From: an uncultured Actinomycetes bacterium
GTDB taxonomy: Bacteria > Actinomycetota > Thermoleophilia > Gaiellales > JAICJC01
DNA length: 64,000 nt
Assembly (NCBI GenBank): GCA_963809325.1
Contig: CAWEIZ010000002.1
Location: 609,745-673,744 of the forward strand
Direction: 5' to 3'
Shown here: piece by piece, positions 4,301 to 64,000 of the stretch
How the letters are laid out: each line of letters starts with the position of its first letter
How positions within the stretch are numbered: the first letter of the stretch is position 1
Position numbers and translations under genes: made by a program
The notes under the pieces: generated by a model
Seen by the model: the letters and a program-made list of their open reading frames with translations, nothing else
Databases searched by the model: none
What the model was told of the DNA's origin: nothing

Positions 4301-5058
4301 GAGTGCACCATCGGATCGACGGCGCGGGGCCGCCGCTCGTGCTCGTGAACTCGCTCGGGACGGCGCTCGATCTGTGGGAGCCGCAGGTCGGGCCCCTGGC
4401 GGCTCGGTTCCGGCTCGTCCGCTACGACCAGCGCGGGCACGGGGGCACGCCTGCGCCGGAGGGGCCGTACACCATCGCGGAGCTGGCGGGCGACGCACTC
4501 GAGCTGCTCGACCGGCTCGGGCTCGAGCGGGTGTCGGTGTGCGGGCTCTCGATCGGCGGCGCGGTCGCCACGTGGATCGCCGCCAACGCGCCCGAGCGCG
4601 TGGATCGGCTCGTGATCGCATCCGCCGGCAACCGGTTCGCCACGCCCGAGATGTGGCGCGAGCGGGCGGCGGCCGTCCGCGCCGGCGGCACGGAGGCCGT
4701 GGTCGACGCGGTGCTCGACCGGTGGTTCACCCCCGCGTTCGCGGCGGCCAGGCCCGACGTGGTCGCAGCGTTCCGGACCGCGTTCTGCGCCGTCCACCGC
4801 GAGGGGTACGCCGGCTGCTGCGAGGCGCTCGAGGAGTGGGACGCGACCGCCCACCTGGGCCGGATCCGCGCGCCGGCGCTCGTGCTCTCGGGGTCGGAGG
4901 ACACGGTCGCCCCGCCCGAGAACGGGCGGGCCATGGCCGACGGCATCGCCGGGGCGCGCGTCGTCGTCCTCGAGGACTGCGCCCACCTCGCGAGCGCCGG
5001 GCAGCCGGCCGCCTTCACCCGGGCGGTGCTCGAGCACCTGGCCGGAGATGCCCGATGA
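4297..5058 (+). CDS. pcaD: 3-oxoadipate enol-lactonase (alpha/beta hydrolase)
   Basis: PPLVLVNSLGTALDLWEPQ...VCGLSIGG...SGSEDTVAPP; GTGA overlap with pcaB. Start could be GTG 4297 or 4303. Confidence 0.8.
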   Translation: MRVHHRIDGAGPPLVLVNSLGTALDLWEPQVGPLAARFRLVRYDQRGHGGTPAPEGPYTIAELAGDALELLDRLGLERVSVCGLSIGGAVATWIAANAPERVDRLVIASAGNRFATPEMWRERAAAVRAGGTEAVVDAVLDRWFTPAFAAARPDVVAAFRTAFCAVHREGYAGCCEALEEWDATAHLGRIRAPALVLSGSEDTVAPPENGRAMADGIAGARVVVLEDCAHLASAGQPAAFTRAVLEHLAGDAR

Positions 5059-5435
5059 GCGATTCGGCCCACGAGCGCGGCATGGAGGTGCGCCGCGAGG
5101 TCCTGGGCGACGAGCATGTCGACGCCGCAACCGCGCGGGCCACCGATCTCACCCGCGAGTTCCAGGAGCTCATCACCCGGTACGCCTGGGGTGAGATCTG
5201 GACGCGGCCGGGGCTCGACCGGCGCACGCGCAGCTGCATCACGATCGCTGCGATGGTGGCCCTGAACCGCGAGCACGAGCTCGAGCTGCACATCCGCGCG
5301 GGGCGGCGGAACGGCCTCGAATGGGACGAGATCAAGGAGGTGCTGCTCCAGAGCGCGATCTACTGCGGCGTCCCCGCGGCGAACGCGGCGTTCGCGGTCG
5401 CACAGCGCGTGATGGACGCCGAGGCCGGGGGCTGA
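5055..5435 (+). CDS. pcaC: 4-carboxymuconolactone decarboxylase
   Basis: GMEVRREVLGDEHVD...YAWGEIWTRPGLDRRTRSCITIAAMVALNREHELELHIRAGRRNG; ATGA overlap. Confidence 0.85.
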   Translation: MSDSAHERGMEVRREVLGDEHVDAATARATDLTREFQELITRYAWGEIWTRPGLDRRTRSCITIAAMVALNREHELELHIRAGRRNGLEWDEIKEVLLQSAIYCGVPAANAAFAVAQRVMDAEAGG

Positions 5436-6610
5436 TGCGCACACAGGTGGGGATCGTCGGCGCCGGGCCCGCCGGGCTGACCCTCGCCCAGCTCCTGCGC
5501 GCCGAGGGGATCGAGTCGGTCGTGCTCGAGTCGCGGAGCCGCGACCACGTCGAGCACCGCATCCGGGCCGGCGTTCTCGAGCAGGGCACGGTGGACACGC
5601 TGGCCGGTGCCGGCGCAGGCGAGCGGCTGGCCCGCGAGGGCATCGTCCACCACGGGATCGGCCTCCAGTTCGACGGCGAGCGGCACCGCATCCCCCTGAG
5701 CGAGCTGACCGGCCGGGCGTCGATCGTGATCTACGGCCAGACCGAGATCGTGAAGGACCTGATCCGGATCCGCCTCGACGCCGGCGAGCCGCTCCTCTTT
5801 GAGGTGGGCGGCGTCGCGGTGCACGACATCGAGACCGACCGGCCCCGGATCACGTTCGAGCACGAGGGCCGGGCGCACGAGCTGGAGTGCGATCTGGTCG
5901 CCGGCTGCGACGGCTTCCACGGCGTGTGCCGCGAGACGATCCCGGCGGGCGTCCTGCGCGGGTTCTCGCGCGAGTATCCGTACGGCTGGCTGGGGATCCT
6001 GGCGGACGTCGCGCCGTCGCACGACGAGGTGCTCTACTGCAACACCGACCGCGGGTTCGCGCTTCTCAGCCTGCGCTCGCCCGAGATCAGCCGGCTCTAC
6101 CTCCAGTGCCGGCCGGACGAGGATCTCGGCGGGTGGCCCGACGAGCGGATCTGGGACGAGCTCGAGGCACGGCTCGGGATCCCGGGCTGGACGCTCCACC
6201 GGGGGCCGATCCTCGAGAAGGGCGTCACGGGGATGCGGAGCTTCGTGGTCGAGCCGATGCGGCACGGCCGCCTGTTCCTGGCCGGCGACGCCGCCCACAT
6301 CGTCCCGCCGACCGGCGCCAAGGGCCTGAACCTCGCGATCTCGGACGTCACGCTCCTGGCCGAGGCGATCGCCGACCGGCACCGCACGGGGCGCACGACG
6401 CTGCTCGACGCCTACTCGGACGCGTGCCTGCGGAGGGTCTGGCGCGCCGAGCACTTCTCGTGGTGGATGACCTCGATGCTGCACCGGCCGCCCGATGCCG
6501 ACCCGTTCGACGTCCAGCTCCAGCGTGCGCAGCTTGGCTACGTGGTGCGGTCGGCGGCGGCGGCGAGGACGCTGGCCGAGAACTACGTCGGGCTGGCAGG
6601 CCGTCTGTGA
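5435..6610 (+). CDS. pobA: 4-hydroxybenzoate 3-monooxygenase
   Basis: MRTQVGIVGAGPAGLTLAQLL...DLVAGCDGFHGVCR...FLAGDAAHIVPPTGAKGLNLA. Confidence 0.9.
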   Translation: MRTQVGIVGAGPAGLTLAQLLRAEGIESVVLESRSRDHVEHRIRAGVLEQGTVDTLAGAGAGERLAREGIVHHGIGLQFDGERHRIPLSELTGRASIVIYGQTEIVKDLIRIRLDAGEPLLFEVGGVAVHDIETDRPRITFEHEGRAHELECDLVAGCDGFHGVCRETIPAGVLRGFSREYPYGWLGILADVAPSHDEVLYCNTDRGFALLSLRSPEISRLYLQCRPDEDLGGWPDERIWDELEARLGIPGWTLHRGPILEKGVTGMRSFVVEPMRHGRLFLAGDAAHIVPPTGAKGLNLAISDVTLLAEAIADRHRTGRTTLLDAYSDACLRRVWRAEHFSWWMTSMLHRPPDADPFDVQLQRAQLGYVVRSAAAARTLAENYVGLAGRL

Positions 6611-39270: not shown

Positions 39271-40389
39271 CTACGCCTCCAGCGGCAGTCCCACCCAGCC
39301 GCGCTCGTGGTGGGAGCGCTCGACGGCGTTGATGACCTCCTGCACCCAGGCGGCGTCGGCGAATCCGCCCTCGTTCTCCCTGCCCGCCAGGATCTCGTCG
39401 ACGAAGTTCGCGGTGAGGTTCGAGTAGTAGAGCGTCGGCCAGTCCTCGTGGACAGATCCGCCCGGCGGGTAGAGCCGCTCGGGGACCTCGACCGGCTCGA
39501 ACTCGACGGCATCGGGCTTCGCCGACCGGAGCGTCTCGGCGACGCCGTGCTCCTCGACCAGGCGGGCGATCAGCGCGCCCTCGCTGCCGTACACGCGCAC
39601 CTCGATGCCGGGATAGTTCCCGACGGTGACGAAGCTCGACTGCACCGAGCAGATCGCGCCGCTTGCGAACTCGCCGATGAAGATGTCGCCGTCGTCGATG
39701 TTGGCCCGGGTCATGAGGCCGGTCTCGCGGATGACCCGCTCGGGCACGAAGTTGCGAAGGACGCCGACGACCGCGGTCAGGTCGGACGCCATGAACCAGT
39801 GGCCGAGGTCGATCACCGGCGCGCCGTAGCCCTCGAGCGACGAGACGACGATGCGGTCGGCCTCGGGGTCGGGCGCCACCTGCCGGAGCGGCGTCTGGGG
39901 GTCGATCCACTGCGAGTTCTGCTCGTAGGCGTTGTAGATGTACGGCGTGCCGACGAAGCCCTCGTTGATGAGCTCCTTCATGTACCGCACGGCCGGGCTG
40001 TAGCGGAACGTGAACCCGACCTTCGTGCCGAGCCCCTTCGACGCCGCCAGGTCGCGTGCGCGCAGGGTGTCGCGGTAGTCGTGCGCCACCGGCTTCTCGC
40101 AGAGCACGTGCTTGCCCGCCTCGAGCGCCGCCATGGTGAGCGTGAAGTGCTCCTCGTCGCCCGTCACGACGTCGATGACGTCGATGTCGTCGCGCTCGAT
40201 CACGCGCCGGTGGTCGGAGACGGCCTCGCCGACACCGAACCTGTCCGCCGCCGTCCGGGCCAGGTCGGGATCGGAGTCGCACACTGCGACCACGCGGCAG
40301 CGCTCGTCGCGCGTCCATCCGGGCAGGTGGGCCCAGTTCGCCCACCTCCCGCACCCGATCACGCCGATCCGTAGCTCTGCTCCGGCCAT
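39271..40389 (-). CDS. Gfo/Idh/MocA family oxidoreductase
   Basis: GGGAGGA RBS; LRIGVIGCGRWANWAHLPGW...GKHVLCEKPVAH. Confidence 0.85.
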   Translation of the reverse strand: MAGAELRIGVIGCGRWANWAHLPGWTRDERCRVVAVCDSDPDLARTAADRFGVGEAVSDHRRVIERDDIDVIDVVTGDEEHFTLTMAALEAGKHVLCEKPVAHDYRDTLRARDLAASKGLGTKVGFTFRYSPAVRYMKELINEGFVGTPYIYNAYEQNSQWIDPQTPLRQVAPDPEADRIVVSSLEGYGAPVIDLGHWFMASDLTAVVGVLRNFVPERVIRETGLMTRANIDDGDIFIGEFASGAICSVQSSFVTVGNYPGIEVRVYGSEGALIARLVEEHGVAETLRSAKPDAVEFEPVEVPERLYPPGGSVHEDWPTLYYSNLTANFVDEILAGRENEGGFADAAWVQEVINAVERSHHERGWVGLPLEA

Positions 40390-41397
40390 GCATCCTCCCT
40401 TCGGGTCTCTTCGTGGCGCCAGCACCGGGCCGTGTGACCGTCGGCGCCGGCGGATAGCAGCTCGGTCTCCCATGCCCGGCACTGGTCGAGCGCGAGCGGG
40501 CAGCGCGGCGCGAACCGGCACCCGTCCGGCACGTCGACGAGCGCCGGCGGGGCCCCGCCGATCGAGCGCAGGTAGCGGCTCTGGGAGTTCACGTCCGGCA
40601 GTGAGCGCAGGAGCGAGATCGTGTACGGATGGCTGGGCTCGCCGAGGAGCGTGGCGGTGTCGGCCAGCTCGACGATCTCGCCGGCGTACATCACCGCGAC
40701 CCGGTCGCACATCTCGCCGATCACGCCCAGGTCGTGGCTGACCAGGATCATGCTCATCCCGAAGTCACGCTGGAGCTCGAGCAGGAGGCTCAGGATCTGG
40801 TCCTGGATCAGGACGTCGAGGGCGGTGGTCGGCTCGTCGGCGAGCAGCACCTTCGGGCGGCCGGCGATCGCCATCGCGATCAGGACGCGCTGGCGCATAC
40901 CGCCTGAGAACTGGTGTGGGTAGTCGCGCATCCGCCGCTCCGGGACGGGGATCCCGACGCGCTCCAGGAGCTCGACTGCCCGCGTCCGCCGCTCGCGCCC
41001 GGAGAGGCGCTCGTGGGCGCCGACCGCCTCCTCGACCTGGGCCCCCACGCGCATGACCGGGTTGAGCGCGCTCATCGGGTCCTGGAACACCATCGAGAGG
41101 TGCGCGCCGCGCATCCGCTGGAGCTCGGTCGCCGAGAGCGTGAGCAGGTTGCGGTCGCCGTACCCGGCGAGGCGCACGTTCCCCGTCGAGCGGGCGGGGG
41201 GAGACGGCATGAGCCCGGCGATCGTCCGGCACGTGACGCTCTTGCCGCAGCCGCTCTCGCCGACGAGCCCGAGGATCTCGCCGCTCGCCGACGGCGAACG
41301 ACACGCCGTCGACCGCGCGGACGACGCCGGCGTCGGTCGCGATGTACGTGCGCAGGTCCTCGACCTCGAGCACGGGCGGCGCCGAGGGGTCAGTCAC
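40359..41397 (-). pseudogene. ABC transporter ATP-binding protein (DppD/OppD type), +1 frameshift near 41281-41284 as assembled
   Basis: MTDPSAPPVLEVEDLRTYIATDAGVVRAVDGVSFAVGE runs in one frame. GEILGLVGESGCGKSVTCRTIAGLMPSPP...FSGGMRQRVLIAMAI...ADEPTTALD follows in the next frame. Confidence 0.75.
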
Positions 41398-55399: not shown

Positions 55400-56514
55400 G
55401 CGCGGCCCGCTCGGTGACGGTGGTCGGAAACGGCGTCGCCGGCTACGCGTGCGCGCGCCGCCTGGCCGAGTCCGGCGTCGCGGTGACGCTGATCGGCCCC
55501 GGCCTGCCCTGCGATCGCCCCCCGCTCTCGAAGCGCGCGCTCGTGCGCCGGGCGGCGCCGTATCTGGCGACGGCCGACGGCCTCGCCGCGGCCGGAATCC
55601 GCCATCTCGACGGTTGGGCCGTCGAGCTCGACCTTCCGCGCCGGCGGCTCGGCGTGCAGTGCACGGCGCGGGGTGAGATCCACGAGCATGCCTTCGAGGA
55701 GCTCGTGTGGGCGACCGGCCTGCGCCTGACGCGTCCCCCGATCCCCGGAATCGGGGTGGCCCACCAGAACGCCGACCCGGCGGGGCTCGAGGAGCTTCTT
55801 CCCCGCCTCGAGCGGCCGGGTCGGCGGGTGGCGGTCATCGGAGCCGGGCTCATCGGCACCGAGACCGCCGCCACGTTGTCGGCGGCCCATCGCGTCACGC
55901 TGGTCGAACGGGGCGATCTGCCGTTGAGCCGGCTTCACAGCGCCGTCGGAGCCGAGGCCAAGCGGGTGCTTGCCGCGCTCGGCGTCGCGTTCGCCGGGGG
56001 CTGCAGCCTCGAGCGCATCGTTCCCATCCCCGGCGGCTCGCAGCTCATCCAGACGTCGACCCACGGGCGGATCGCGGCCGACGTCGTGATCGTCGCGGCC
56101 GGGGTCACCTCGACGCTGCCGCCTGCGCTCGGCGCCGGGCCCACCGTCGATACCGACGAGCGGCTCGCGGTCGAGGGTCTCGACGGCGTCTGGGCGTGCG
56201 GCGACACCGCCGCCTTCCCGCACCCGCGGTTCGGCCGCATCGCGATCCCGCATTGGGACAATGCCCGCGCCGGCGGCGACCACGTCGCGCGCGCGATCCT
56301 GGGGTCGCGCGCGCCGTTCGAGCGGGACCCGTACTGGTTCTCGGACATCGGCCCGCTGCGTGTGCAGCAGGTCGGGTTCGAGCCCGCCGTGTGCGAATGG
56401 TCGGTGCGCGACGGGCTTCACGTCGGTTGCGCGGACGACGGCCGGGCCGCGTGCGTCCTGCTTCTGAACTCCCCCCAACGATTGAACGATGCCCGCCGCC
56501 TGCTGGCGGCCTGA
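55396..56514 (+). CDS. NAD(P)/FAD-dependent oxidoreductase (ferredoxin reductase-like)
   Basis: VTVVGNGVAGYACARRL...VAVIGAGLIGTETAATL...VWACGDTAAF; GTGA overlap. Confidence 0.8.
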   Translation: MSAARSVTVVGNGVAGYACARRLAESGVAVTLIGPGLPCDRPPLSKRALVRRAAPYLATADGLAAAGIRHLDGWAVELDLPRRRLGVQCTARGEIHEHAFEELVWATGLRLTRPPIPGIGVAHQNADPAGLEELLPRLERPGRRVAVIGAGLIGTETAATLSAAHRVTLVERGDLPLSRLHSAVGAEAKRVLAALGVAFAGGCSLERIVPIPGGSQLIQTSTHGRIAADVVIVAAGVTSTLPPALGAGPTVDTDERLAVEGLDGVWACGDTAAFPHPRFGRIAIPHWDNARAGGDHVARAILGSRAPFERDPYWFSDIGPLRVQQVGFEPAVCEWSVRDGLHVGCADDGRAACVLLLNSPQRLNDARRLLAA

Positions 56515-56538
56515 CCAACCCCGAGAGGAGACGACCCG

Positions 56539-56733
56539 ATGGACACCCAGCTCATCATCGACCCGGACACGTGCGTCGGATACGGGGAGTGCGTCGCCGA
56601 GGACGCGTCCGCCGTCGAGCTCGACGAGAACGGCTGCGCGCGGGCTCTCGTGCCGCTGCTTGCCCGCGACCGGGCGGAGCGGCTCTGCTCCGCGTGCCCG
56701 GTCGGCGCCATCACGCTCAGGTCTGCGGCCTAG
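56539..56733 (+). CDS. small ferredoxin
   Basis: MDTQLIIDPDTCVGYGECVAEDASAVELDENGCA...CSACPVGAITL. Confidence 0.8.
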   Translation: MDTQLIIDPDTCVGYGECVAEDASAVELDENGCARALVPLLARDRAERLCSACPVGAITLRSAA

Positions 56734-56739
56734 AGTAGA

Positions 56740-56999
56740 GATGAGTGACCGATAACTCCCGCGCGCGTGGACGCCCGCCGCTTCGGAACGGCGAACCGGG
56801 GAGAGGCTGTGGCTGCGAACCGTCGCATCGCGGCGTCCTCGGTCGCCCCGATATTTCAATCAATATCGCCCGCCGGCGTCTGCGTCATCGCAGACGCCTT
56901 CCGAACCCTGTCAAGCCGTGCCGGCTTGACAGGTCCTGCGTCCTTGCGCTACTCGGTTCTCGCCACCCAGAACATCACGGGAGTTATCGATCACTCATC
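56740..56999 (-). ncRNA. candidate structured RNA, copy 1 (260 nt; 22-bp closing stem, conserved core, two extra hairpin insertions)
   Basis: Closing stem 56740-56761 / 56978-56999. Its only mismatch is C.A on the plus strand, which is G.U on the minus strand. Core blocks are near-identical to 63590-63794. No conserved ORF. Confidence 0.4.
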
Positions 57000-57289
57000 C
57001 CCCGCCGCCAATCGAACACGGCGGTGAGCGCCTCGGGCGCCTTGACCGCGCCGGCCAGCTCGATCACCTGGAGCTGCAGGTCGTGGTCGTCCGCCAGGCG
57101 GCGCACGACGGCATCCGGATCCAGGCCCTCGAACAGGAAGGCGACGTGCCTGGGGCCGATGAACACCGTGTGCCGCTCGAGCTCGGTCGCCGCGATGTCG
57201 TAGGGCGGCTCCCCGGAGAACGTCTCGAGGAGCTCCTCGCGGCGGGCGGGGTCGATCTGGGCGACGTAGAGGATCTCTGTTCCGGCCAT
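56984..57289 (-). CDS. hypothetical small protein, last gene of the USP-ATPase unit
   Basis: MAGTEILYVAQIDPARREELLETFSGEPPYD...HTVFIGPRHVAFLFEG...; the stop codon lies inside the closing stem of the element above. Confidence 0.6.
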   Translation of the reverse strand: MAGTEILYVAQIDPARREELLETFSGEPPYDIAATELERHTVFIGPRHVAFLFEGLDPDAVVRRLADDHDLQLQVIELAGAVKAPEALTAVFDWRRGMSDR

Positions 57290-57333
57290 CCGTGGTCGAG
57301 GATAGCGCGACGGGGCCGTCGTGCGGAAGGTGG

Positions 57334-59193
57334 TCACGAGCGACCGCCACCCAGGGCCCGGAGCGCGTTCAGGATCACGGCGACGTCGATGACCTCCTGG
57401 AACACCGCGCCCGACACCGGCGGCAGGTATCCGGCGGCGGCGAACGCCATGCCCACGATGCTGAGCCCCAGGCCGGCGATGACGCTCTGGCGGGCGATCC
57501 GGATCGATCGCCGGCCGATGCTCACCGCGCGGGCGACGCGATCGATGCGGTCGACCGCGATCACCGCGTCCGCGGCCTCCGACGCGATGGTGGCGCCGGC
57601 CGCGCCGAGCGCGATGCCGACGTCGGCGAGCGCCAGGGCCGGCGCGTCGTTGATCCCGTCGCCGACCATCACGATCGGGCTCAGGTCATCGCGAGCGGCG
57701 AGCGAGCGGACGAGCTCCAGCTTGTCCTGAGGCGACTGCCTGGCGTAGATCCGGTCGACGCCCGCCGCGCGGCCGATGGCCTCTGCCGTGGTCTCGACGT
57801 CTCCCGTGGCGAGGGCCACGTACCGGACACCCGATCTGCGCAGGTCGGCCACGAGCCCCCCGGCATCCTCGCGCAACCGGTCCGACATCACGATCACGGC
57901 GACGACGCGACCGTCGGCCGCCACGGTGACGCGCGCCTCGCCGTCCGCGGCCGCGCCCTCGTCGGCCAGAGCCTCGGGCTGGGCCGCGTGCGCCGCCACG
58001 AACGCTGCGCTTCCGACAGCGACCGGCCGTCCGTCGACGTCGCCCGCGATGCCCTGTCCCGCGTCCTCCCGCACACCGCTCGGCATGCTGAGCCGGAGTC
58101 CGCGATCCGACGCCTCCCGCACGAGCGCTGCGGCCATGGCGTGCGAGGAGAACTGGTCGAGCGACGCCGCAATCCGCAGCGCCTCGCTCGCAGGGATGCC
58201 GTCCGCGGTCAGGATCCGGTCGACCTGAGCCGTTCCCAGCGTCAGCGTCCCGGTCTTGTCGAAGAGCACGGTGCGCGCGCGGCCCAGCGCCTCGATGACG
58301 GCACCGCCCTTCACGATCACGCCCTCCCGCGCCGCCCGGGACACGCCCGAGATGAACGCGATCGGCGCGGCCAGGATGAGCGGGCACGGCGTCGCAACCA
58401 CCAGCACCGCGACGGCCCGTCGTGGGCTCCCGCTGACCGCCCACGCCGAGCCGGCCACCACGATCGTCACCGGCAGGAACACGGCTGCGTAGCGGTCGGC
58501 CATCCGGACGAAGGGCGCCTGACTGCCTTCGGCGTCGCGCACGAGCCGCACCAGGGCGGCGTACGTGCTGCCCGACGCCGGCGTCGTGGCCTCGAGCTCG
58601 AAGGCCTCGCCGGCATTCGTGCAGCCGCCGCGCGCCGTCGCACCGGTGTGCAGCGTGCGCGGCAACGGCTCGCCGGTCAGCGCCGAGTCGTCGACGATGG
58701 CCTCGGCGCTCTGGACGATGCCGTCTGTGGGGATCACCTCGCCGGCCCGGACGAGCAGACGGTCTCCGACCCGCACCTCGTCGACCCCGATCCGCTCGAC
58801 AGCATCGCCCGTGATCCGGTTCGCCCACTTGGGCGCTCGGTCGACCAGGAGCGTCAGCTCCCGGCGGGCCCGCCCCTGCGCGAAGAGCTCGAGTGCGTTC
58901 CCCCCGGCGAGCATCAGCGCGATCACGGCCCCCGCCAGGTACTCGCCGATCGCCAGCGCGCCCGCCATGGCCAGGAGCGCGATCGCATCCACGCCGACGT
59001 CACCGTGAAGCAGCGACCTCCCGACCGAGATCGAAAGCGGGATCAAGAGGGCGAGCGTCGACGCCGCCCAGATGGTGCTCGCGGCGGCGTGCGCTCCCGC
59101 GAGATCGAGCACCCCTCCTGCAACCAGGCTGACGGTGGCCGCGCCCGGCAGGAGGAGGCGTGTCTCCATGGCCGTGCGCGGCAGACCGGGCAT
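57334..59193 (-). CDS. heavy-metal-type (P1B) P-type ATPase, with no N-terminal metal-binding domain and TM motif PCP
   Basis: DKTGTLT, VMVGDGINDAPALA, ATPCPLILAAP, TGEPLP. The start is 59193 or 59169. Confidence 0.85.
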   Translation of the reverse strand: MPGLPRTAMETRLLLPGAATVSLVAGGVLDLAGAHAAASTIWAASTLALLIPLSISVGRSLLHGDVGVDAIALLAMAGALAIGEYLAGAVIALMLAGGNALELFAQGRARRELTLLVDRAPKWANRITGDAVERIGVDEVRVGDRLLVRAGEVIPTDGIVQSAEAIVDDSALTGEPLPRTLHTGATARGGCTNAGEAFELEATTPASGSTYAALVRLVRDAEGSQAPFVRMADRYAAVFLPVTIVVAGSAWAVSGSPRRAVAVLVVATPCPLILAAPIAFISGVSRAAREGVIVKGGAVIEALGRARTVLFDKTGTLTLGTAQVDRILTADGIPASEALRIAASLDQFSSHAMAAALVREASDRGLRLSMPSGVREDAGQGIAGDVDGRPVAVGSAAFVAAHAAQPEALADEGAAADGEARVTVAADGRVVAVIVMSDRLREDAGGLVADLRRSGVRYVALATGDVETTAEAIGRAAGVDRIYARQSPQDKLELVRSLAARDDLSPIVMVGDGINDAPALALADVGIALGAAGATIASEAADAVIAVDRIDRVARAVSIGRRSIRIARQSVIAGLGLSIVGMAFAAAGYLPPVSGAVFQEVIDVAVILNALRALGGGRS

Positions 59194-59205
59194 CGGGCGT
59201 TGCGG

Positions 59206-59643
59206 TCAGGCTTCGATCGCCGACGACTCTGCGGCCTCGACCCCGTGTCCCGTGTAGCCACCGGGGACGACGAGCACCGGGCACGTGGCGATCGGCAGCA
59301 GGCGCTGCGTTGTGCTTCCCAGCACTGCGCCGGCGAACGGCCCGCGGCCGCGGCTGGCGATCACGATCAGCTCGGCCTCGGCTTCCCGAGCGACTTCGGC
59401 GATCATCTGCGCCTCGTCGCCGAACAGCGAGTCGCGGACGATGATGGAGGTCTCGATGCCGGACCGGGAGAGGTGCTCAACGTGAGCGTGGAGCGTGTCC
59501 TCGATCGCGGTTTCGAGCGCGTGCGTGCGGGCGTGCGCAACCACGATCCGGGCGCCTTCCCGGCGCGCGTACGCCTCGGCGACGGGGATCGCCCGATTGG
59601 AGCCTTCCGATCCATCGAGTGCGAGAACGATTGTGGTGTACAT
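59206..59643 (-). CDS. universal stress protein
   Basis: MYTTIVLALDGSEGS...LIVIASRGRGPFAGAVLGSTTQRLLPIATCPVLVV. Confidence 0.9.
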   Translation of the reverse strand: MYTTIVLALDGSEGSNRAIPVAEAYARREGARIVVAHARTHALETAIEDTLHAHVEHLSRSGIETSIIVRDSLFGDEAQMIAEVAREAEAELIVIASRGRGPFAGAVLGSTTQRLLPIATCPVLVVPGGYTGHGVEAAESSAIEA

Positions 59644-59696
59644 GGCAACACCTCCGTGTCGTTCTCACCATGGTTGCGTGTGGACCTCCGGGCGGC

Positions 59697-59714
59697 ATCG
59701 GGGCGGGTACCGAA
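59697..59714. promoter_or_regulatory. stress-island dyad, site C (minus-strand reading TTCGGTACCCGCCCCGAT), between the divergent USP and oxidoreductase genes
   Basis: Same spacing as sites A and B; followed by GCCGC. Confidence 0.45.
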
Positions 59715-59818
59715 CTCGTGTGCGGGGTTCCCGTATGGCAGGTCATGGCGGCCACCGATGGCCGTCCGGCCGGTCGGCGCTAGCCTTGAGCCGTCAGAGA
59801 GTCCAGCGGAGGTGCGTG

Positions 59819-60943
59819 ATGAGCGGCCTGCGGCGGCTTCGCGTCGTGATTGCCGGAGGAGGGGTGGCGGCGCTTGAGACGGCGCTCGCCCTGCGCACGC
59901 TGGCGCCCGAGCTGACGGAGATCACGCTCGTCGCGCCGACCGACCGGTTCAGGTTCCGGGCAGCGGCGGTCGGCGAGCCGTTCGGCCGCGCCGAGGTGCA
60001 CCGGTTCGACCTGGGGTCGATCGCGCGCGACATCGGCGTCACGCTGCGGCATGGTGCGCTCACGGCCGTCGATGCCGAGAACAGAACGGCGACCCTGGGC
60101 GGCGACGAGAGGATCGAGTACGACGCCGTCGTCATCGCGTGCGGGGCCCAGGCGAGCCCGGTGGTGCCCGGAGCGCTCGTCTTCGGCGGCCCGGAGGACG
60201 TCGAGGGTCTGCGCAGGCTCGTCGCCGAGATCGACGCCGGCGAGGTCCACGCGGTGGCGTTCGCGATCCCGGCGAGCATCGGCTGGACGCTGCCCGCATA
60301 CGAGCTCGCGCTCCTGACGGCGCACCGGGCCGACCCCCGGGTGTCGATCTCGATCGTGACCCCTGAGGAGGAACCGCTGGCCGCCTTCGGCGGCGAGGCC
60401 AGCGCGGAGGTGCGCCGGCTGCTCGAGGCGAACGGCGTTGCGCTCCACCTGCGCCAGACACCGGCCGAGTTCACGGCCGGCGTCCTGCGCACGCAGCCCG
60501 GCGACGAGATCCAGGTCGAGCGCGTGGTCGCCCTGCCGCGGCTCGTGGGCGTCCCGATCGAGGGCGTCCCCGCCACGCGAGATGGGCTGCTGCGCACCGA
60601 CGAATTCGGACGCGTCGACAACCTGACCGACGTCTACGCCGCGGGCGACATCACCGCGTTTCCGGTCAAGCAGGGTGGCATCGCCGCCGAGCAGGCCGAC
60701 GCCGTCGCCGAGATGCTGGCATCAGAGGCGGGGATCGACATCACGCCCACACCGTTTCAGCCCGTCCTGCGGGGCGTGCTCATGACGGGCGAGGAGGACC
60801 GCTTCCTGCGCGCCGACCTGGGGGGCGGGCGCGGGGACACGGCCGAGGCGGAGGCACGGGCGCTGTGGTGGCCGCCGGCGAAGGTCTCGGGCCGCTACCT
60901 GGCGCCGTATCTGGCCGGCATCGAGGCCGCTACCACGACTTGA
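59819..60943 (+). CDS. FAD-dependent pyridine nucleotide-disulfide oxidoreductase (SQR/NDH-2-like), paralog 2
   Basis: GCGGAGG RBS; LRVVIAGGGVAALETALAL...YDAVVIACG...VYAAGDITAFPVKQGGIAAEQAD. Confidence 0.8.
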   Translation: MSGLRRLRVVIAGGGVAALETALALRTLAPELTEITLVAPTDRFRFRAAAVGEPFGRAEVHRFDLGSIARDIGVTLRHGALTAVDAENRTATLGGDERIEYDAVVIACGAQASPVVPGALVFGGPEDVEGLRRLVAEIDAGEVHAVAFAIPASIGWTLPAYELALLTAHRADPRVSISIVTPEEEPLAAFGGEASAEVRRLLEANGVALHLRQTPAEFTAGVLRTQPGDEIQVERVVALPRLVGVPIEGVPATRDGLLRTDEFGRVDNLTDVYAAGDITAFPVKQGGIAAEQADAVAEMLASEAGIDITPTPFQPVLRGVLMTGEEDRFLRADLGGGRGDTAEAEARALWWPPAKVSGRYLAPYLAGIEAATTT

Positions 60944-63572
60944 GCCGTTCCTGGGGCACGGCGTGCGCCACCCGGACGCGTGCGTCCACGGCGACGCAGT
61001 CGTCCGCGAGCGCGATCACGGGGTTCAGGTCGAGCTCGGCCACGTGTGGGAAGTCCTCCGCGAGCGCGGCGAGCCGGACGACGAGGTCGACGAGCGCGCC
61101 CGTGTCGGCCGGCGGGCGACCGCGGAAGCCGCCCACCAGCTCGCCCGCCTTCCCCGACGTGACGAGCTCGCCGGCGTCGATGTCGGTGAGCGGGAGCGTT
61201 GCGAACGCCGTGCCCCCGATCAGCTCGGCCATCGTCCCGCCGGGGCCGAAGGCCACCACGGGGCCGAACACCGGGTCCTGCACGACGCCGGCCAGGAGCT
61301 CGATCCCGCCCGAGACCATCGGCTGGAGCACGGCCGGATACCCGATCCGGTCGAGGGCGGCGTCGAGCGCGGCCAGGTCGCGGACTCCGAGGATCACGCC
61401 GCCGCTGTCGATCTTGTGGACGCCCGCCTCGCCGAGCTTCACGACGAGCGGGTAGCCCAGCGCATGTGCGGCCTCGAGCGCCTCGGGCCGGTTCGTCACC
61501 GTGCGCTGGGCGACGCACGGCACGCCGTAGGCGGTGAGGAGGCGGCGGGCGGCGTCGGCGCCAAGCCAGGCGTCGGGTGAGGCCTCGAGCGCTGATTCGA
61601 TCACCGCGTGGGCCGCGGCCCGGTCGACGACGGGCTCGTGGACGCGCCCCTGCGGCCGGCGCAGCCACTCGGCCCGCTCGGCGGCCCGCGCGAGCGCGCC
61701 GGCGGCGGCCTCCGGGTAGCGGTAGCACGGCACCGATCCGCTGTGAGTCGCGCTGCCGGGGGTGACCGCCAGCACGGGCTTCCGCGGTTGCTCGCGGTCG
61801 CACGCAGCGGCGATGGCGCGAACGACGTCCTCGGGCATTGCGAGCGCCGTGGGCGCCGCGAGCACGACGAGCGAGTCGACGTCGGCGTCGGCGAGGAGCA
61901 GCGGCACGACGGCCGCGTAGGTCTCGGCCGTCGCCGAGGCGATCATGTCGACCGGGTTGGTGACGGTCGCCTCGTCCGGCAGGAGCGCGGCGAGGTGCTC
62001 GCGCGTGTGCTCGTTGAGCGGCGCAAGCTCGAAGCCGAGCTCGGCGCAGGCGTCGGCGCACAGGATCGCCAGCCCGCCTGCGTTCGACAGGATCGCGACC
62101 CGCCTGCCGTGGGGCAGCGGCTGGGTCGCGACAAGCTGGAGGACGTCGCACAGCTCCTGCAGGGTGTGCGCGCGGATCACGCCGGCCTGTTCGAACAGCG
62201 CCTCCACCGCCCGGTCGGAACCGGCCAGCGCGGCAGTGTGTGACATCGCGGCCCGCTCGCCCATCGTCGTCGACCCGCTCTTCAGCGCCAGGACCGGCTT
62301 CTGCCTGGCGACCCGGTTGGCGATGCGCGCGAAGCGGCGGGGGTTCCCGACCGACTCCAGGTAGAGCGCGATCGCGGCAGTGTTGTCGTCGTCCTCCCAG
62401 TACTCGAGCAGGTCGTTGGACGACACGTCCGCCTTGTTGCCGATCGATACGAACGCGGACATGCCGAGGCCGCGCTGGGAGGCCTCGTCGATCACCGCGA
62501 GGCCGACGGCGCCGCTCTGCGACGAGATGGCCACGTTCCCCGGCTCGAACTGGCGGCGCGAGAACGTCGCGTTCATCTTCGTCGCCGCGGCGAAGACGCC
62601 CAGGCAGTTCGGCCCGACCATGCGCGCACCGTGCGAGCGGACGAGTGACAGCAGGTCGGCCTCGGCCTTCGCGCCGGCCGGCCCGGTCTCGGCGAACCCC
62701 GCCGAGATCACGCACACCGCCTTCGTGCCGGCGGCGAGCGCCTCGGCGACCGCTCCCTGGACGGCGCCCGACGGCACCGCGATGACCGCCAGGTCGATGG
62801 GCACCGGCAGCTCCGCGACCGAGGCGTGCGCGGGGTGCCCGGCAACGGGCTCGCCGGAGCGGTTGACCGGGAAGACCGATCCGGTGTAGCCGGCCTCGAC
62901 GATGTTCCGGAAGACGGCGCCTCCGATCGACCCCTCGCGCGCGGACGCGCCGACCACGGCGACCGAGTCCGGCTCGAGCACGGGCCGCAGCGACGGCCCG
63001 ACCGCGGTGTGGTCGCGAAAGTCCACTGCCTCGAAGTAGCGCTCGTCGAACCGGATCGGGAAGTCGACCCGGATCTCCTCGCCGTCGTCGCTGCGGGTGA
63101 CCTCGAACCCCGAGTCCTCGAAGACCCGCAGCATCGCCCGGTTCTCGGGCAGCACCTCGGCGACGAAGCGCTCGATCCCGATCTTGCCCGCCTCGTCCGC
63201 GATCTGCTCGAGCAGCCGGGTGGCGATCCCGTCGGCCTGGCGGTCGTCGGCCACGACGAACGAGACCTCCGCCAGCCGCGGGTCGCGGAGGCGGACGAAG
63301 CTCGCCAGGCCGATCACCCGGGCGCTCTCGTCGGCGCCGACGGCGGTGGCGAGGAGCACGCCCTCGCTCGTCCAGTCCGGGTCGAGGAAGCTCGCGACCA
63401 TCGCGTCGTCGACGCGCCTGGCGGCGTGGAACCGCAGACGCATGCTCGTCGGCGAGAGCTCCGTCAGGAACCGCCGCACGGCGTCGGCGTCGTCGTCGGA
63501 AGGCGGGCGCAGGCGGAGCGTGCGCCCGCCTCGCAGGATGACGTCGTGAACGCGTTGCCCGGTGGCGCTCAT
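60930..63572 (-). CDS. bifunctional GNAT acetyltransferase / ADP-forming acyl-CoA synthetase-like protein (Pat-like, GNAT N-terminal)
   Basis: N-terminal GNAT domain (VADDRQADGIATRLLEQIADEAGKIGIERFVAEVLPENRAMLRVFEDSGF). It is followed by CoA-binding/succinyl-CoA-ligase-like and ATP-grasp regions (VAVVGAS...GPNCLG...SQSGA...VVKL...). GGAAGG RBS. Confidence 0.85.
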   Translation of the reverse strand: MSATGQRVHDVILRGGRTLRLRPPSDDDADAVRRFLTELSPTSMRLRFHAARRVDDAMVASFLDPDWTSEGVLLATAVGADESARVIGLASFVRLRDPRLAEVSFVVADDRQADGIATRLLEQIADEAGKIGIERFVAEVLPENRAMLRVFEDSGFEVTRSDDGEEIRVDFPIRFDERYFEAVDFRDHTAVGPSLRPVLEPDSVAVVGASAREGSIGGAVFRNIVEAGYTGSVFPVNRSGEPVAGHPAHASVAELPVPIDLAVIAVPSGAVQGAVAEALAAGTKAVCVISAGFAETGPAGAKAEADLLSLVRSHGARMVGPNCLGVFAAATKMNATFSRRQFEPGNVAISSQSGAVGLAVIDEASQRGLGMSAFVSIGNKADVSSNDLLEYWEDDDNTAAIALYLESVGNPRRFARIANRVARQKPVLALKSGSTTMGERAAMSHTAALAGSDRAVEALFEQAGVIRAHTLQELCDVLQLVATQPLPHGRRVAILSNAGGLAILCADACAELGFELAPLNEHTREHLAALLPDEATVTNPVDMIASATAETYAAVVPLLLADADVDSLVVLAAPTALAMPEDVVRAIAAACDREQPRKPVLAVTPGSATHSGSVPCYRYPEAAAGALARAAERAEWLRRPQGRVHEPVVDRAAAHAVIESALEASPDAWLGADAARRLLTAYGVPCVAQRTVTNRPEALEAAHALGYPLVVKLGEAGVHKIDSGGVILGVRDLAALDAALDRIGYPAVLQPMVSGGIELLAGVVQDPVFGPVVAFGPGGTMAELIGGTAFATLPLTDIDAGELVTSGKAGELVGGFRGRPPADTGALVDLVVRLAALAEDFPHVAELDLNPVIALADDCVAVDARVRVAHAVPQERLKSW

Positions 63573-63589
63573 CAAGACCTTCCGTAATC

Positions 63590-63794
63590 TAGATGGTTGA
63601 TTCCCAATTCGCGCGCGCCTGGACGTCCGATTTGTGGCGTGGACCGCCAAGCGTGGCGGGGCTGCGGCTGCGAACCGTCGCATCGCGGCGTCCTCGGTCG
63701 CGCCGATATTCACCAATATCGGCGCTCCCTGCGTCCTTGCGCTGCTCGGTTCTCGCCGCCCAGGACATCACGTGAATTGGGAATCAACCATCTA
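63590..63794 (-). ncRNA. candidate structured RNA, copy 2 (205 nt; perfect 21-bp closing stem), between the USP stop codon and the Pat-like gene RBS
   Basis: Closing stem 63590-63610 / 63774-63794. Core blocks match copy 1. On the minus strand its 5' end is the USP stop UAG and its 3' end lies 17 nt before ATG 63572. Confidence 0.4.
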
Positions 63795-64000
63795 GGCCGG
63801 ACCCGGCCGAATCACCAGGACCGAGCATCCTGCGCGGTGTGCGGCGCGCTCGCTCACGCTCCCGAGCGCATGGACCCCTCTCAACCCGCGGCTCCCGAGC
63901 ACGAGGAGATCCGCGTCCACATCCGAGAACGCGTCGACGGGATCGCGCGTGTCGTCGGTCAGGAGGAAGCCGCCCGAGTCGATGACGATCGACCGCACCG
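63792..64000 (-). CDS. universal stress protein, C-terminal part (5' end outside window)
   Basis: ...DADLLVLGSRGLRGVHALGSVSERAAHRAGCSVLVIRP*. Confidence 0.75.
   Translation of the reverse strand, partial: VRSIVIDSGGFLLTDDTRDPVDAFSDVDADLLVLGSRGLRGVHALGSVSERAAHRAGCSVLVIRPGPA

Follow-up and report, generated by a model that had tools for sequence, protein, structure and literature searches.

Results

Organization of the locus

The 64,000-nt stretch of DNA from an uncultured Gaiellales bacterium that we analyzed, referred to as a whole as the window, ends in two minus-strand genes, and between them lies the subject of this study, a noncoding element of 205 nt at 63590-63794. On one side is the 3' end of a USP gene, clipped by the window end (63792-64000, minus strand; Pfam PF00582 Usp, E = 5.8e-10), and on the other a Pat-like gene (60930-63572, minus strand) whose 880-amino-acid product carries an N-terminal GNAT domain followed by CoA-binding, Succ_CoA_lig, and ATP-grasp_5 domains; this gene is a neighbor of the element and not a part of it. 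The Usp-domain open reading frame (ORF) ends with the TAG that terminates the element (63794-63792, minus strand), and the G of this stop codon comes from the element. At its other end, 17 nt separate the element from the ATG of the Pat-like gene (63572), with a GGAAGG at 63583-63578. An earlier note on this DNA had described the element as reaching from the USP stop codon to 17 nt before the Pat-like ATG, which our coordinates and Pfam matches bear out, and had read it as a riboswitch-like leader of the Pat-like gene. As argued below, we instead consider it probable, at about 0.82, that the element is a nonautonomous DNA transposon of ~200 bp, a miniature inverted-repeat transposable element, or MITE, that reads GATG....CATC and is flanked by a duplicated TA.

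A second copy lies at 56740-56999 (copy 1; the element beside the Pat-like gene is copy 2), and the two loci share long blocks and closing stems as had been claimed. Block A, a run of 36 nt (GGCTGCGAACCGTCGCATCGCGGCGTCCTCGGTCGC), is identical at 56811-56846 and 63666-63701, its two exact occurrences in the window, and gave 0 matches in shuffled sequence. Block B, of 43 nt, differs by three G/A transitions between 56936-56978 (copy 1) and 63729-63771 (copy 2). Neither block occurs in the window beyond the two copies, and neither was found in shuffled sequence. Each copy is closed by a long inverted repeat, perfect over 21 bp in copy 2 (TAGATGGTTGATTCCCAATTC / GAATTGGGAATCAACCATCTA) and 22 bp long with a single C.A mismatch in copy 1 (GATGAGTGACCGATAACTCCCG / CGGGAGTTATCGATCACTCATC). 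The outer 9 bp of the two stems differ by two double compensatory changes, as the note had stated. Predicted folding is much more favorable than that of shuffled sequence for both copies and on either strand, with z values of -8.3 to -11.3. The G+C content of copy 2 is 62.9%, against 71.4% for the window, and that of its outer 12 nt is 33%.

Copy 2 measures 205 bp including the TA at each end and has the family '+' orientation on the plus strand of the window, with the flanking genes on the minus strand. The left arm of its closing stem, or terminal inverted repeat (63590-63610), is perfectly complementary to the right arm (63774-63794); the outer part, GATGGTTGATTCC, is similar to an IS982-type terminus, GATGATTGATTCCACG, and the inner part is subfamily specific. 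Enclosed by this stem are, in order, a conserved block, GCGCGCCTGGACG (63613-63625), whose CCTGG pairs with a CCAGG of block B; a variable region (63626-63657) that forms a small hairpin and differs in sequence from copy to copy; conserved block A, GGGGCTGCGGCTGCGAACCGTCGCATCGCGGCGTCCTCGGTCGC (63658-63701), whose GAACCG pairs with a CGGTTC of block B; an internal hairpin, GCGCCGATATT-CACC-AATATCGGCGC (63700-63725); and conserved block B, TCCCTGCGTCCTTGCGCTGCTCGGTTCTCGCCGCCCAGGACATCACGT (63726-63773).

Copy 1 (56738-57001) is older and has decayed ends: GA precedes GATGAG, CC follows CTCATC, and an intact TA pair is absent around the GATG...CATC core at 56740-56999. Between the CGATATT hairpin and block B it carries an optional two-hairpin module (56868-56935), made up of GGCGTCTGCGTCATCGCAGACGCC (56875-56898) and CCTGTCAAGCCGTGCCGGCTTGACAGG (56907-56933). 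Its neighbors are a ferredoxin gene on one side and an unrelated convergent ORF on the other. We also observe that a minus-strand ORF at 56984-57337 takes its last five codons and TAA from copy 1.

In agreement with the earlier note, which could not match the core to a known riboswitch or sRNA family, Rfam gave no match in the whole window at gathering score, and at E <= 10 it gave nothing but chance-level matches in 56400-64000. ARAGORN detected no tRNA or tmRNA genes in 56000-64000, a promoter and terminator scan of 63400-64000 revealed no sites in or beside copy 2, and a BLAST search of copy 2 against plasmids matched nothing.

Distribution of the repeat family

Further copies were retrieved with an exact 22-mer from block A, which was matched against the GTDB representatives, one genome per species. 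L-numbers denote fetched loci; the 73 genome loci obtained in this way comprise 644 kb together with the window. They come from ~24 genomes, all of them metagenome-assembled genomes of Gaiellales/Thermoleophilia, with more matches in soil metagenomes, and the richest genome, MFD04944.bin.1.18 (contig accession prefix CAVWSF), holds 21 of them. An nhmmer profile built from the copies recognized ~80 full-length members in the 73 loci and, in the window, the two known copies only. Copy 2 matches this profile over positions 1-205 (E = 8e-58), and copy 1 matches it in two parts (56739-56870 and 56930-56999).

The copies share a near-universal start, cTAGATGnnTGAT, and end, ATCAnnCATCTAg. The commonest subfamily has the 18-bp terminus GATGATTGATTCCACGCC, and other subfamilies end in TTCCCAATTC, CGATAACTCC, or CGGTGAGTCC. 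Their terminal arms are 21 to 24 bp long, with 91.8% of cells paired in an alignment of 58 copies. Most copies are 200 to 209 bp long, with variants of 257 to 259 bp and 322 to 323 bp that result from inserted hairpin modules. A coding function was rejected since this length variation does not proceed in multiples of three; there is no three-base periodicity in length, and the frame that opens at the terminal ATG is intact in 36 of 74 copies.

The genes next to the copies are unrelated to each other and include those for a response regulator, a TetR regulator, an MFS transporter, atpG (ATP synthase gamma), fhs (formate-tetrahydrofolate ligase), and others. Relative to the family orientation, the flanking genes are arranged minus/minus at 24 copies, plus/plus at 16, convergently at 18, and divergently at 9, and orientation with respect to the flanking genes is unbiased. 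A literature search combining Gaiellales and MITE found no paper, and we regard the repeat as a MITE family not described before, whose hosts belong to an uncultured order of soil actinobacteria.

Empty sites, target-site duplication, and target choice

The flanks of each copy were joined and matched against the other loci in a search for empty sites. The site of copy 2 is empty in L007, a Gaiellales locus that is 93% identical to the window over 2.65 kb (Pat gene): a single TA (5654-5655) is found where the window has TA-element-TA. This TA lies within the TAA stop codon of the USP gene, which is followed by 13 nt and then the Pat ATG. On this basis, 63590-63591 and 63793-63794 are the left and right TA of a target-site duplication, the right one forming, with G63792, the TAG at which the minus-strand USP gene stops. 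L007 has a copy of its own (2789-2991) at the 3' end of its Pat-like gene, so that in the two genomes the element is located at opposite ends of this gene; the matching site in the window (60923-60926) is empty. Two further comparisons show the same pattern of one TA versus two, L049 (filled) with L044 (empty; GGACTC-TA-CGAACG) and L060 (filled) with L043 (empty; ATGC-TA-ACGG), which brings the clean filled/empty pairs with TA duplication to three. Across 74 copies, the left TA has T in 54 and A in 70.

Near-identical copies also occur within single genomes. The copies in L020 and L028 are 99% identical and occupy unrelated loci of one genome, and another genome contains five near-identical copies of 258 bp.

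Insertion is not random with respect to gene ends. At 51 of 81 element ends that face a gene 3' end, the stop codon of the abutting gene lies inside the terminal 11 nt, and in 35 it is the terminal TAG. The terminus TAGATGATTGA, present at both ends of copies (e.g., window 63590-63600 and 63784-63794), offers stops in all three frames (TAG, TGA, and TGA), followed or overlapped by an ATG. Outside the TA, the adjacent base is C in 55 to 62% of copies; at the left end, there is a depletion of G. CTAG is ~7-fold underrepresented in the 73 loci and the window (230 observed versus ~1,635 expected from base composition); about a third of its occurrences are element ends. The observed contexts fit a CTAG-like target with a preference for the TA of stop codons, and it is because of this preference that copy 2 starts exactly at the UAG of the USP gene.

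At some orthologous sites, copies of different subfamilies are present in different genomes (L023 2227 versus L047 2128; L031 3247 versus L046 6966). Since these differ in inner stem and length, they suggest independent, repeated insertion at hot-spot TA sites rather than inheritance. A further side observation concerns the region of the L007 copy. In the window, the Pat-like gene (minus) and a pyridine nucleotide-disulfide oxidoreductase gene (plus, 59495-60943) converge with a 14-nt overlap (60930-60943); the L007 copy, just inside that overlap, gives the plus-strand oxidoreductase gene a new eight-codon tail and stop.

Structure and covariation

Four helices were tested in an alignment of 58 copies: the closing stem, the CCTGG/CCAGG helix, a long-range helix between blocks A and B, and the internal hairpin. 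Paired cells made up 90.1% of the total, against 33 to 40% when the partners were slid by 1 to 3 columns. Changes on both sides were seen in 35 of 60 pairs, and 0 of 500 shuffles reached the observed values. The earlier proposal that selection acts on pairing is thus upheld in a larger set, with both-side changes in 21 of 23 pairs in the closing stem and in 7 of 11 in the internal hairpin; RNAalifold independently found these same two helices. The internal hairpin covaries family-wide, its columns 121 and 140 forming AU in 25 copies, CG in 24, and GC in 6. The CCTGG/CCAGG helix (columns 31-35 with 181-185) is paired in 95.5%, and the helix between blocks A and B is kept by double changes from GAACCG/CGGTTC to AACCCG/CGGGTT (L008 7466-7559) and AAACCG/CGGTTT (L040 2855-2944). 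In the closing stem, it is the pairing and not the sequence that is conserved.

Which strand carries the structure was addressed by the 1,505 pair cells, of which 1,410 are Watson-Crick, 21 G.T, 36 A.C, and 38 other mismatches. There is no G-U wobble signature; the proportions are about those of random single mutations, and the slight excess of A.C is independent of the direction of transcription. The earlier argument for the minus strand, which relied on a mismatch that becomes G.U on that strand and on substitutions that become C/U, therefore does not survive. A need for pairing on both strands fits either fold-back of the DNA or folding of the element when it is transcribed in either direction.

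A candidate partner insertion sequence

A scan of metagenome contigs with GATGATTGATTCCACGCC returned at least 120 loci, and among the matches listed, most were the ends of an element of ~1 kb and not of the MITE. In L154, this insertion sequence (IS) occupies 1217-2216, reads GATGATTGATTCCACGCC...GGCGTGGAATCAATCATC with a TA outside each end, and contains one ORF of 289 amino acids. The ORF scores 150 bits against NCBIfam NF033520, the IS982 family transposase equivalog (cut-off, 130), and also matches Pfam DDE_Tnp_1. In the 32 full-length IS copies examined, the transposases are 56 to 65% identical to that of L154. The 16-bp terminus GATGATTGATTCCACG is present in all 30 IS copies with both ends readable, three 5' ends being one base off, and 'cta' stands outside nearly every end. 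The transposase protein family is large and comprises over 7,000 clusters at E <= 1e-40.

The commonest MITE subfamily is identical to the IS ends over its outer 16 to 18 bp and has the same cTA flanks. Mobilization in trans by this IS982 clade is inferred from this identity of ends and target flanks. In the IS, the inverted repeats end after 16 bp, whereas in the MITE the arms remain paired for 22 to 24 bp. Positions 17 to 24, which make up the inner closing stem, are located past the IS terminus, and the corresponding IS positions are not inverted repeats. Recognition of identical ends by a transposase does not explain the complementarity of this inner stem, which implies some requirement for pairing.

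Several other candidates were considered. An IS630/Tc1-mariner partner, our first guess from the TA duplication, gave way to one of the IS982 family, to which the only IS found with matching ends belongs. Scans for pairs of terminal inverted repeats that might delimit an autonomous copy in the 73 loci and the window gave MITE pairs or chance matches only; an apparent pair at window 39935-40715 is inside coding sequence. An all-against-all BLAST of the loci for the same purpose returned syntenic orthologous regions only. The candidate at L066 1160 is a truncated remnant beside ordinary genes, and a low-GC stretch at 43 to 45 kb of the window, considered as a transposase locus, codes for ABC-transporter proteins.

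As a separate observation, one IS982-family transposase (P0114) is identical on at least 20 contigs (L194-L203; ENA assemblies ERZ25039528 and others), with two copies 5.6 kb apart in L199. This multiplicity indicates that the IS is highly active in some soil actinobacterial genomes; the MITE is absent from the 200 kb sampled there.

Variant copies

The optional module of ~55 to 60 nt consists of two covarying hairpins, ..CTGCG-loop-CGCAG.. and GCAAGCC-loop-GGCTTGC (also TGTCAAG..CTTGACA). It was found inside family members only and at three different positions of the element: besides window 56868-56935, it occurs at L038 4391-4445 and 4544-4600 and in L003, L033, L072, L065, L073, L051, L023, and L044. 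This placement suggests nested or modular insertion.

Two copies are interrupted at one point of the core. In L034 (4427-5509, minus strand), ~870 bp of DNA with a lower G+C content interrupt the copy at GCGAAC and encode the C-terminal 77 amino acids of a Phage_integrase-family protein and a 159-amino-acid ORF without a Pfam hit. In L037, the copy at 5715-5807 is truncated at the same GCGAAC, with no integrase nearby. This motif may be a hot spot of recombination or integration.

Discussion

The element next to the Pat-like gene has the properties by which bacterial MITEs are defined. These are small size, absence of coding capacity, inverted termini, TA ends, target duplication, presence in many copies, and transcripts that form stem-loops (PMC2229807). 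In the Gaiellales family, we find the size and noncoding nature, the terminal inverted repeats, the TA with its duplication, and dispersed copies with insertion polymorphism. A+T-richness is not found, but this is a usual rather than universal property of MITEs that is also lacking in YPAL elements (PMC2229807).

A plausible course of events, pieced together from these comparisons, is the following. The DDE transposase of the IS982-family clade would cut and paste the element in trans, recognizing the outer 10 to 16 bp of each end, and the core with its paired stems, including the inner closing stem beyond the IS terminus, would be needed for the spread of the element or for its tolerance by the host. 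Copy 2 probably inserted at the TA of the USP stop codon, within the 13-nt intercistronic spacer between USP and Pat, and left USP with a stop codon and the ribosome-binding site of Pat intact. The USP and Pat cistrons are now separated by a predicted stem-loop of ~-125 kcal/mol, and copy 2 may, on the model of the Correia and ERIC elements, alter mRNA processing, stability, or translational coupling of USP-Pat.

A number of observations weigh against this reading. The window copies match the IS terminus only in part, copy 2 over its first 13 positions of 16 and copy 1 over ~10 to 11 of 16. The interior of the MITE has no similarity to the IS, neither the window nor any of the 73 Gaiellales loci was found to carry a transposase gene of this kind, and 13 IS-bearing loci (~260 kb, fetched via the protein index) contained no MITE copy. 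In the comparison of the L007 copy with window 60923-60926, GA is found on one side and TA on the other, so that the duplication is not clean. The same core also occurs with shorter and quite different closing stems at L018 225-318, in an atpA-atpG spacer, and at L053 5042-5136, upstream of fhs. Both of these copies belong to Gaiellaceae genomes, and their transcription follows the family '+' orientation; the L018 stem is GTGGTCGCCGCCGCGAACACG / CGTGTTCACGGCGGAGACCAC, and the GCGCGCCTGGACG arm is absent there. Finally, the interior is more conserved than the termini, which neutral decay of a selfish MITE after insertion does not predict. Mean column conservation is 0.96 for GCGCGCCTGGACG (alignment columns 26-37), 0.97 for block A, and 0.94 for block B; the outer termini reach 0.84, the stems 0.63 to 0.73, and the variable region 0.65. 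The value for block A is partly selected by the search pattern, but GCGCGCCTGGACG and block B lie outside that pattern. The conservation implies either that transposition-competent lineages need the core or that the host selects on inserted copies.

It is conceivable, though on balance unlikely, that the four-helix core is a functional nucleic acid module that has spread through the Gaiellales on borrowed IS982 termini, acting either as a structured RNA that serves, in both orientations, in processing and stability between cistrons or at 3' ends, or as a single-stranded fold-back needed for IS982-type transposition. If so, the repeat would be a mobile, structure-selected cassette and not a decaying IS deletion derivative. 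In a related and somewhat less probable version, the termini are only a vehicle, and the core is a host-domesticated structured RNA or single-stranded DNA module that works between cistrons or in 3' untranslated regions (in mRNA processing, stability, termination, or translational coupling), or else a small RNA family spread by transposition. Such domestication would account for the excess conservation of the interior (0.94 to 0.97 versus 0.84) and for the covariation of the internal hairpin, the GAACCG/CGGTTC helix, and the inner closing stem beyond the IS terminus, and it would sit well with the differently closed copies in the atpA-atpG spacer and upstream of fhs. Many copies, moreover, lie 0 to 50 nt from a start codon or on a stop codon and are therefore almost certainly transcribed, and the known MITEs Correia and ERIC do affect mRNA fate (PMC2229807). 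However, the orientation of copies relative to transcription is random, so a strand-specific RNA would have to work both ways, and G-U wobble is not enriched. Likewise, a scan of copy 2 and its surroundings gave no promoter-like or terminator-like site, Rfam gave no match, and the sites are polymorphic among close relatives, so that no single copy can be essential. Selection of 'master' copies for transposition could yield the same conservation.

Far less credible is the proposal from which the analysis started, that the Pat-like gene is under the control of a leader RNA, riboswitch-like or otherwise a dedicated cis regulator, read on the minus strand. In its favor, copy 2 is placed after the stop codon of USP and before the ribosome-binding site of Pat, its predicted fold is strong, and the covariation is real. 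Yet the element belongs to a multicopy family inserted beside unrelated genes in both orientations, copy 1 itself lying between a ferredoxin gene and a convergent ORF, and its site is empty, with TA duplicated in the window, in a relative with 93% identical flanks that has its own copy at the other end of the Pat gene. Nor is there a wobble bias toward the minus strand. On account of the multiple copies in either orientation, the empty site, and the TA duplication, the leader reading falls, and copy 2 probably does not sense a ligand for Pat. The earlier note had itself listed additional copies with common terminal repeats and target-site duplications as a sign of a mobile element, and these are what we find.

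An origin as a relic of a single-strand DNA transposon, mobilized by a Y1 HUH transposase that recognizes hairpins (as in palindrome-associated IS200/IS605 elements or REPIN/RAYT), is equally improbable. The hairpins do covary as Watson-Crick pairs only, without wobble, as expected for DNA hairpins, and the family is of high copy number and intergenic. IS200/IS605 elements, however, are not known to have inverted terminal repeats or to cause target duplications, whereas our element has true terminal inverted repeats and is bordered by TA at each end, where empty sites have a single TA. Its termini match a DDE-type element of the IS982 family, and no TnpA or RAYT gene was seen near copies. The least likely explanation of all is that the core is an attachment or integration site of a tyrosine recombinase element, as the split L034 copy (5509..4427) with its integrase fragment and the L037 copy (5715-5807) truncated at the same position might suggest, since an integrase fragment is present in one case only, its homology ends before the element is reached, no integrase lies downstream in L037, and ~80 other copies are intact.

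The MITE reading places the family beside several known repeats. REP/BIME and REPIN sequences are also dispersed intergenic palindromic repeats, often at gene 3' ends, with hairpins kept by compensatory change. REPINs are conserved in their stem and are linked to the RAYT (Y1) transposase. In contrast, the Gaiellales family has DDE-type inverted termini and a TA duplication, and an asymmetric interior is its conserved part. With riboswitches and leader RNAs it shares a structured element of ~200 nt in which helices covary and internal loops are conserved, in the window just upstream of a start codon, but it differs in having no fixed gene or orientation, in its absence from the orthologous site of a relative, in its mobility, and in the lack of an Rfam match. 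With the IS982 family it has the outer 16 to 18 bp (GATGATTGATTCCACGCC, commonest subfamily) and the cTA flanks in common, but not a transposase gene or any similarity of the interior.

The closest resemblance is to the Correia/NEMIS elements of Neisseria, the ERIC/IRU elements of enterobacteria, and the RUP elements of Streptococcus pneumoniae, which are likewise noncoding multicopy repeats of ~100 to 200 bp, mostly intergenic, with terminal inverted repeats, 5'-TA-3' termini, target-site duplication, filled and empty sites in relatives, and transcripts predicted as long stem-loops (PMC2229807). For RUP and IS630-Spn1, mobilization in trans was also inferred from IS-like ends (PMC2229807). 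The Gaiellales family differs from these in its uncultured, high-GC actinobacterial host and its own G+C content of 63%, in ends that match the IS982 family and not IS630, in an interior that is more conserved than the termini with four covarying helices, and in the subfamily-specific inner closing stem and the optional two-hairpin module at varying positions.

In conclusion, our analysis removes a false riboswitch candidate from annotation and gives the repeat a name and a profile. It is expected to recur in every Gaiellales/Thermoleophilia genome and in soil metagenomes; in such genomes, the repeat breaks assemblies, supplies stop codons to neighboring genes, and splits operons. The family could serve as a convenient natural experiment for learning why a folded shape is retained in some MITEs. 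Furthermore, the USP-Pat pair of the window differs from that of a close relative by a 205-nt hairpin between the cistrons, so that an effect of a MITE on operon expression can be tested there.

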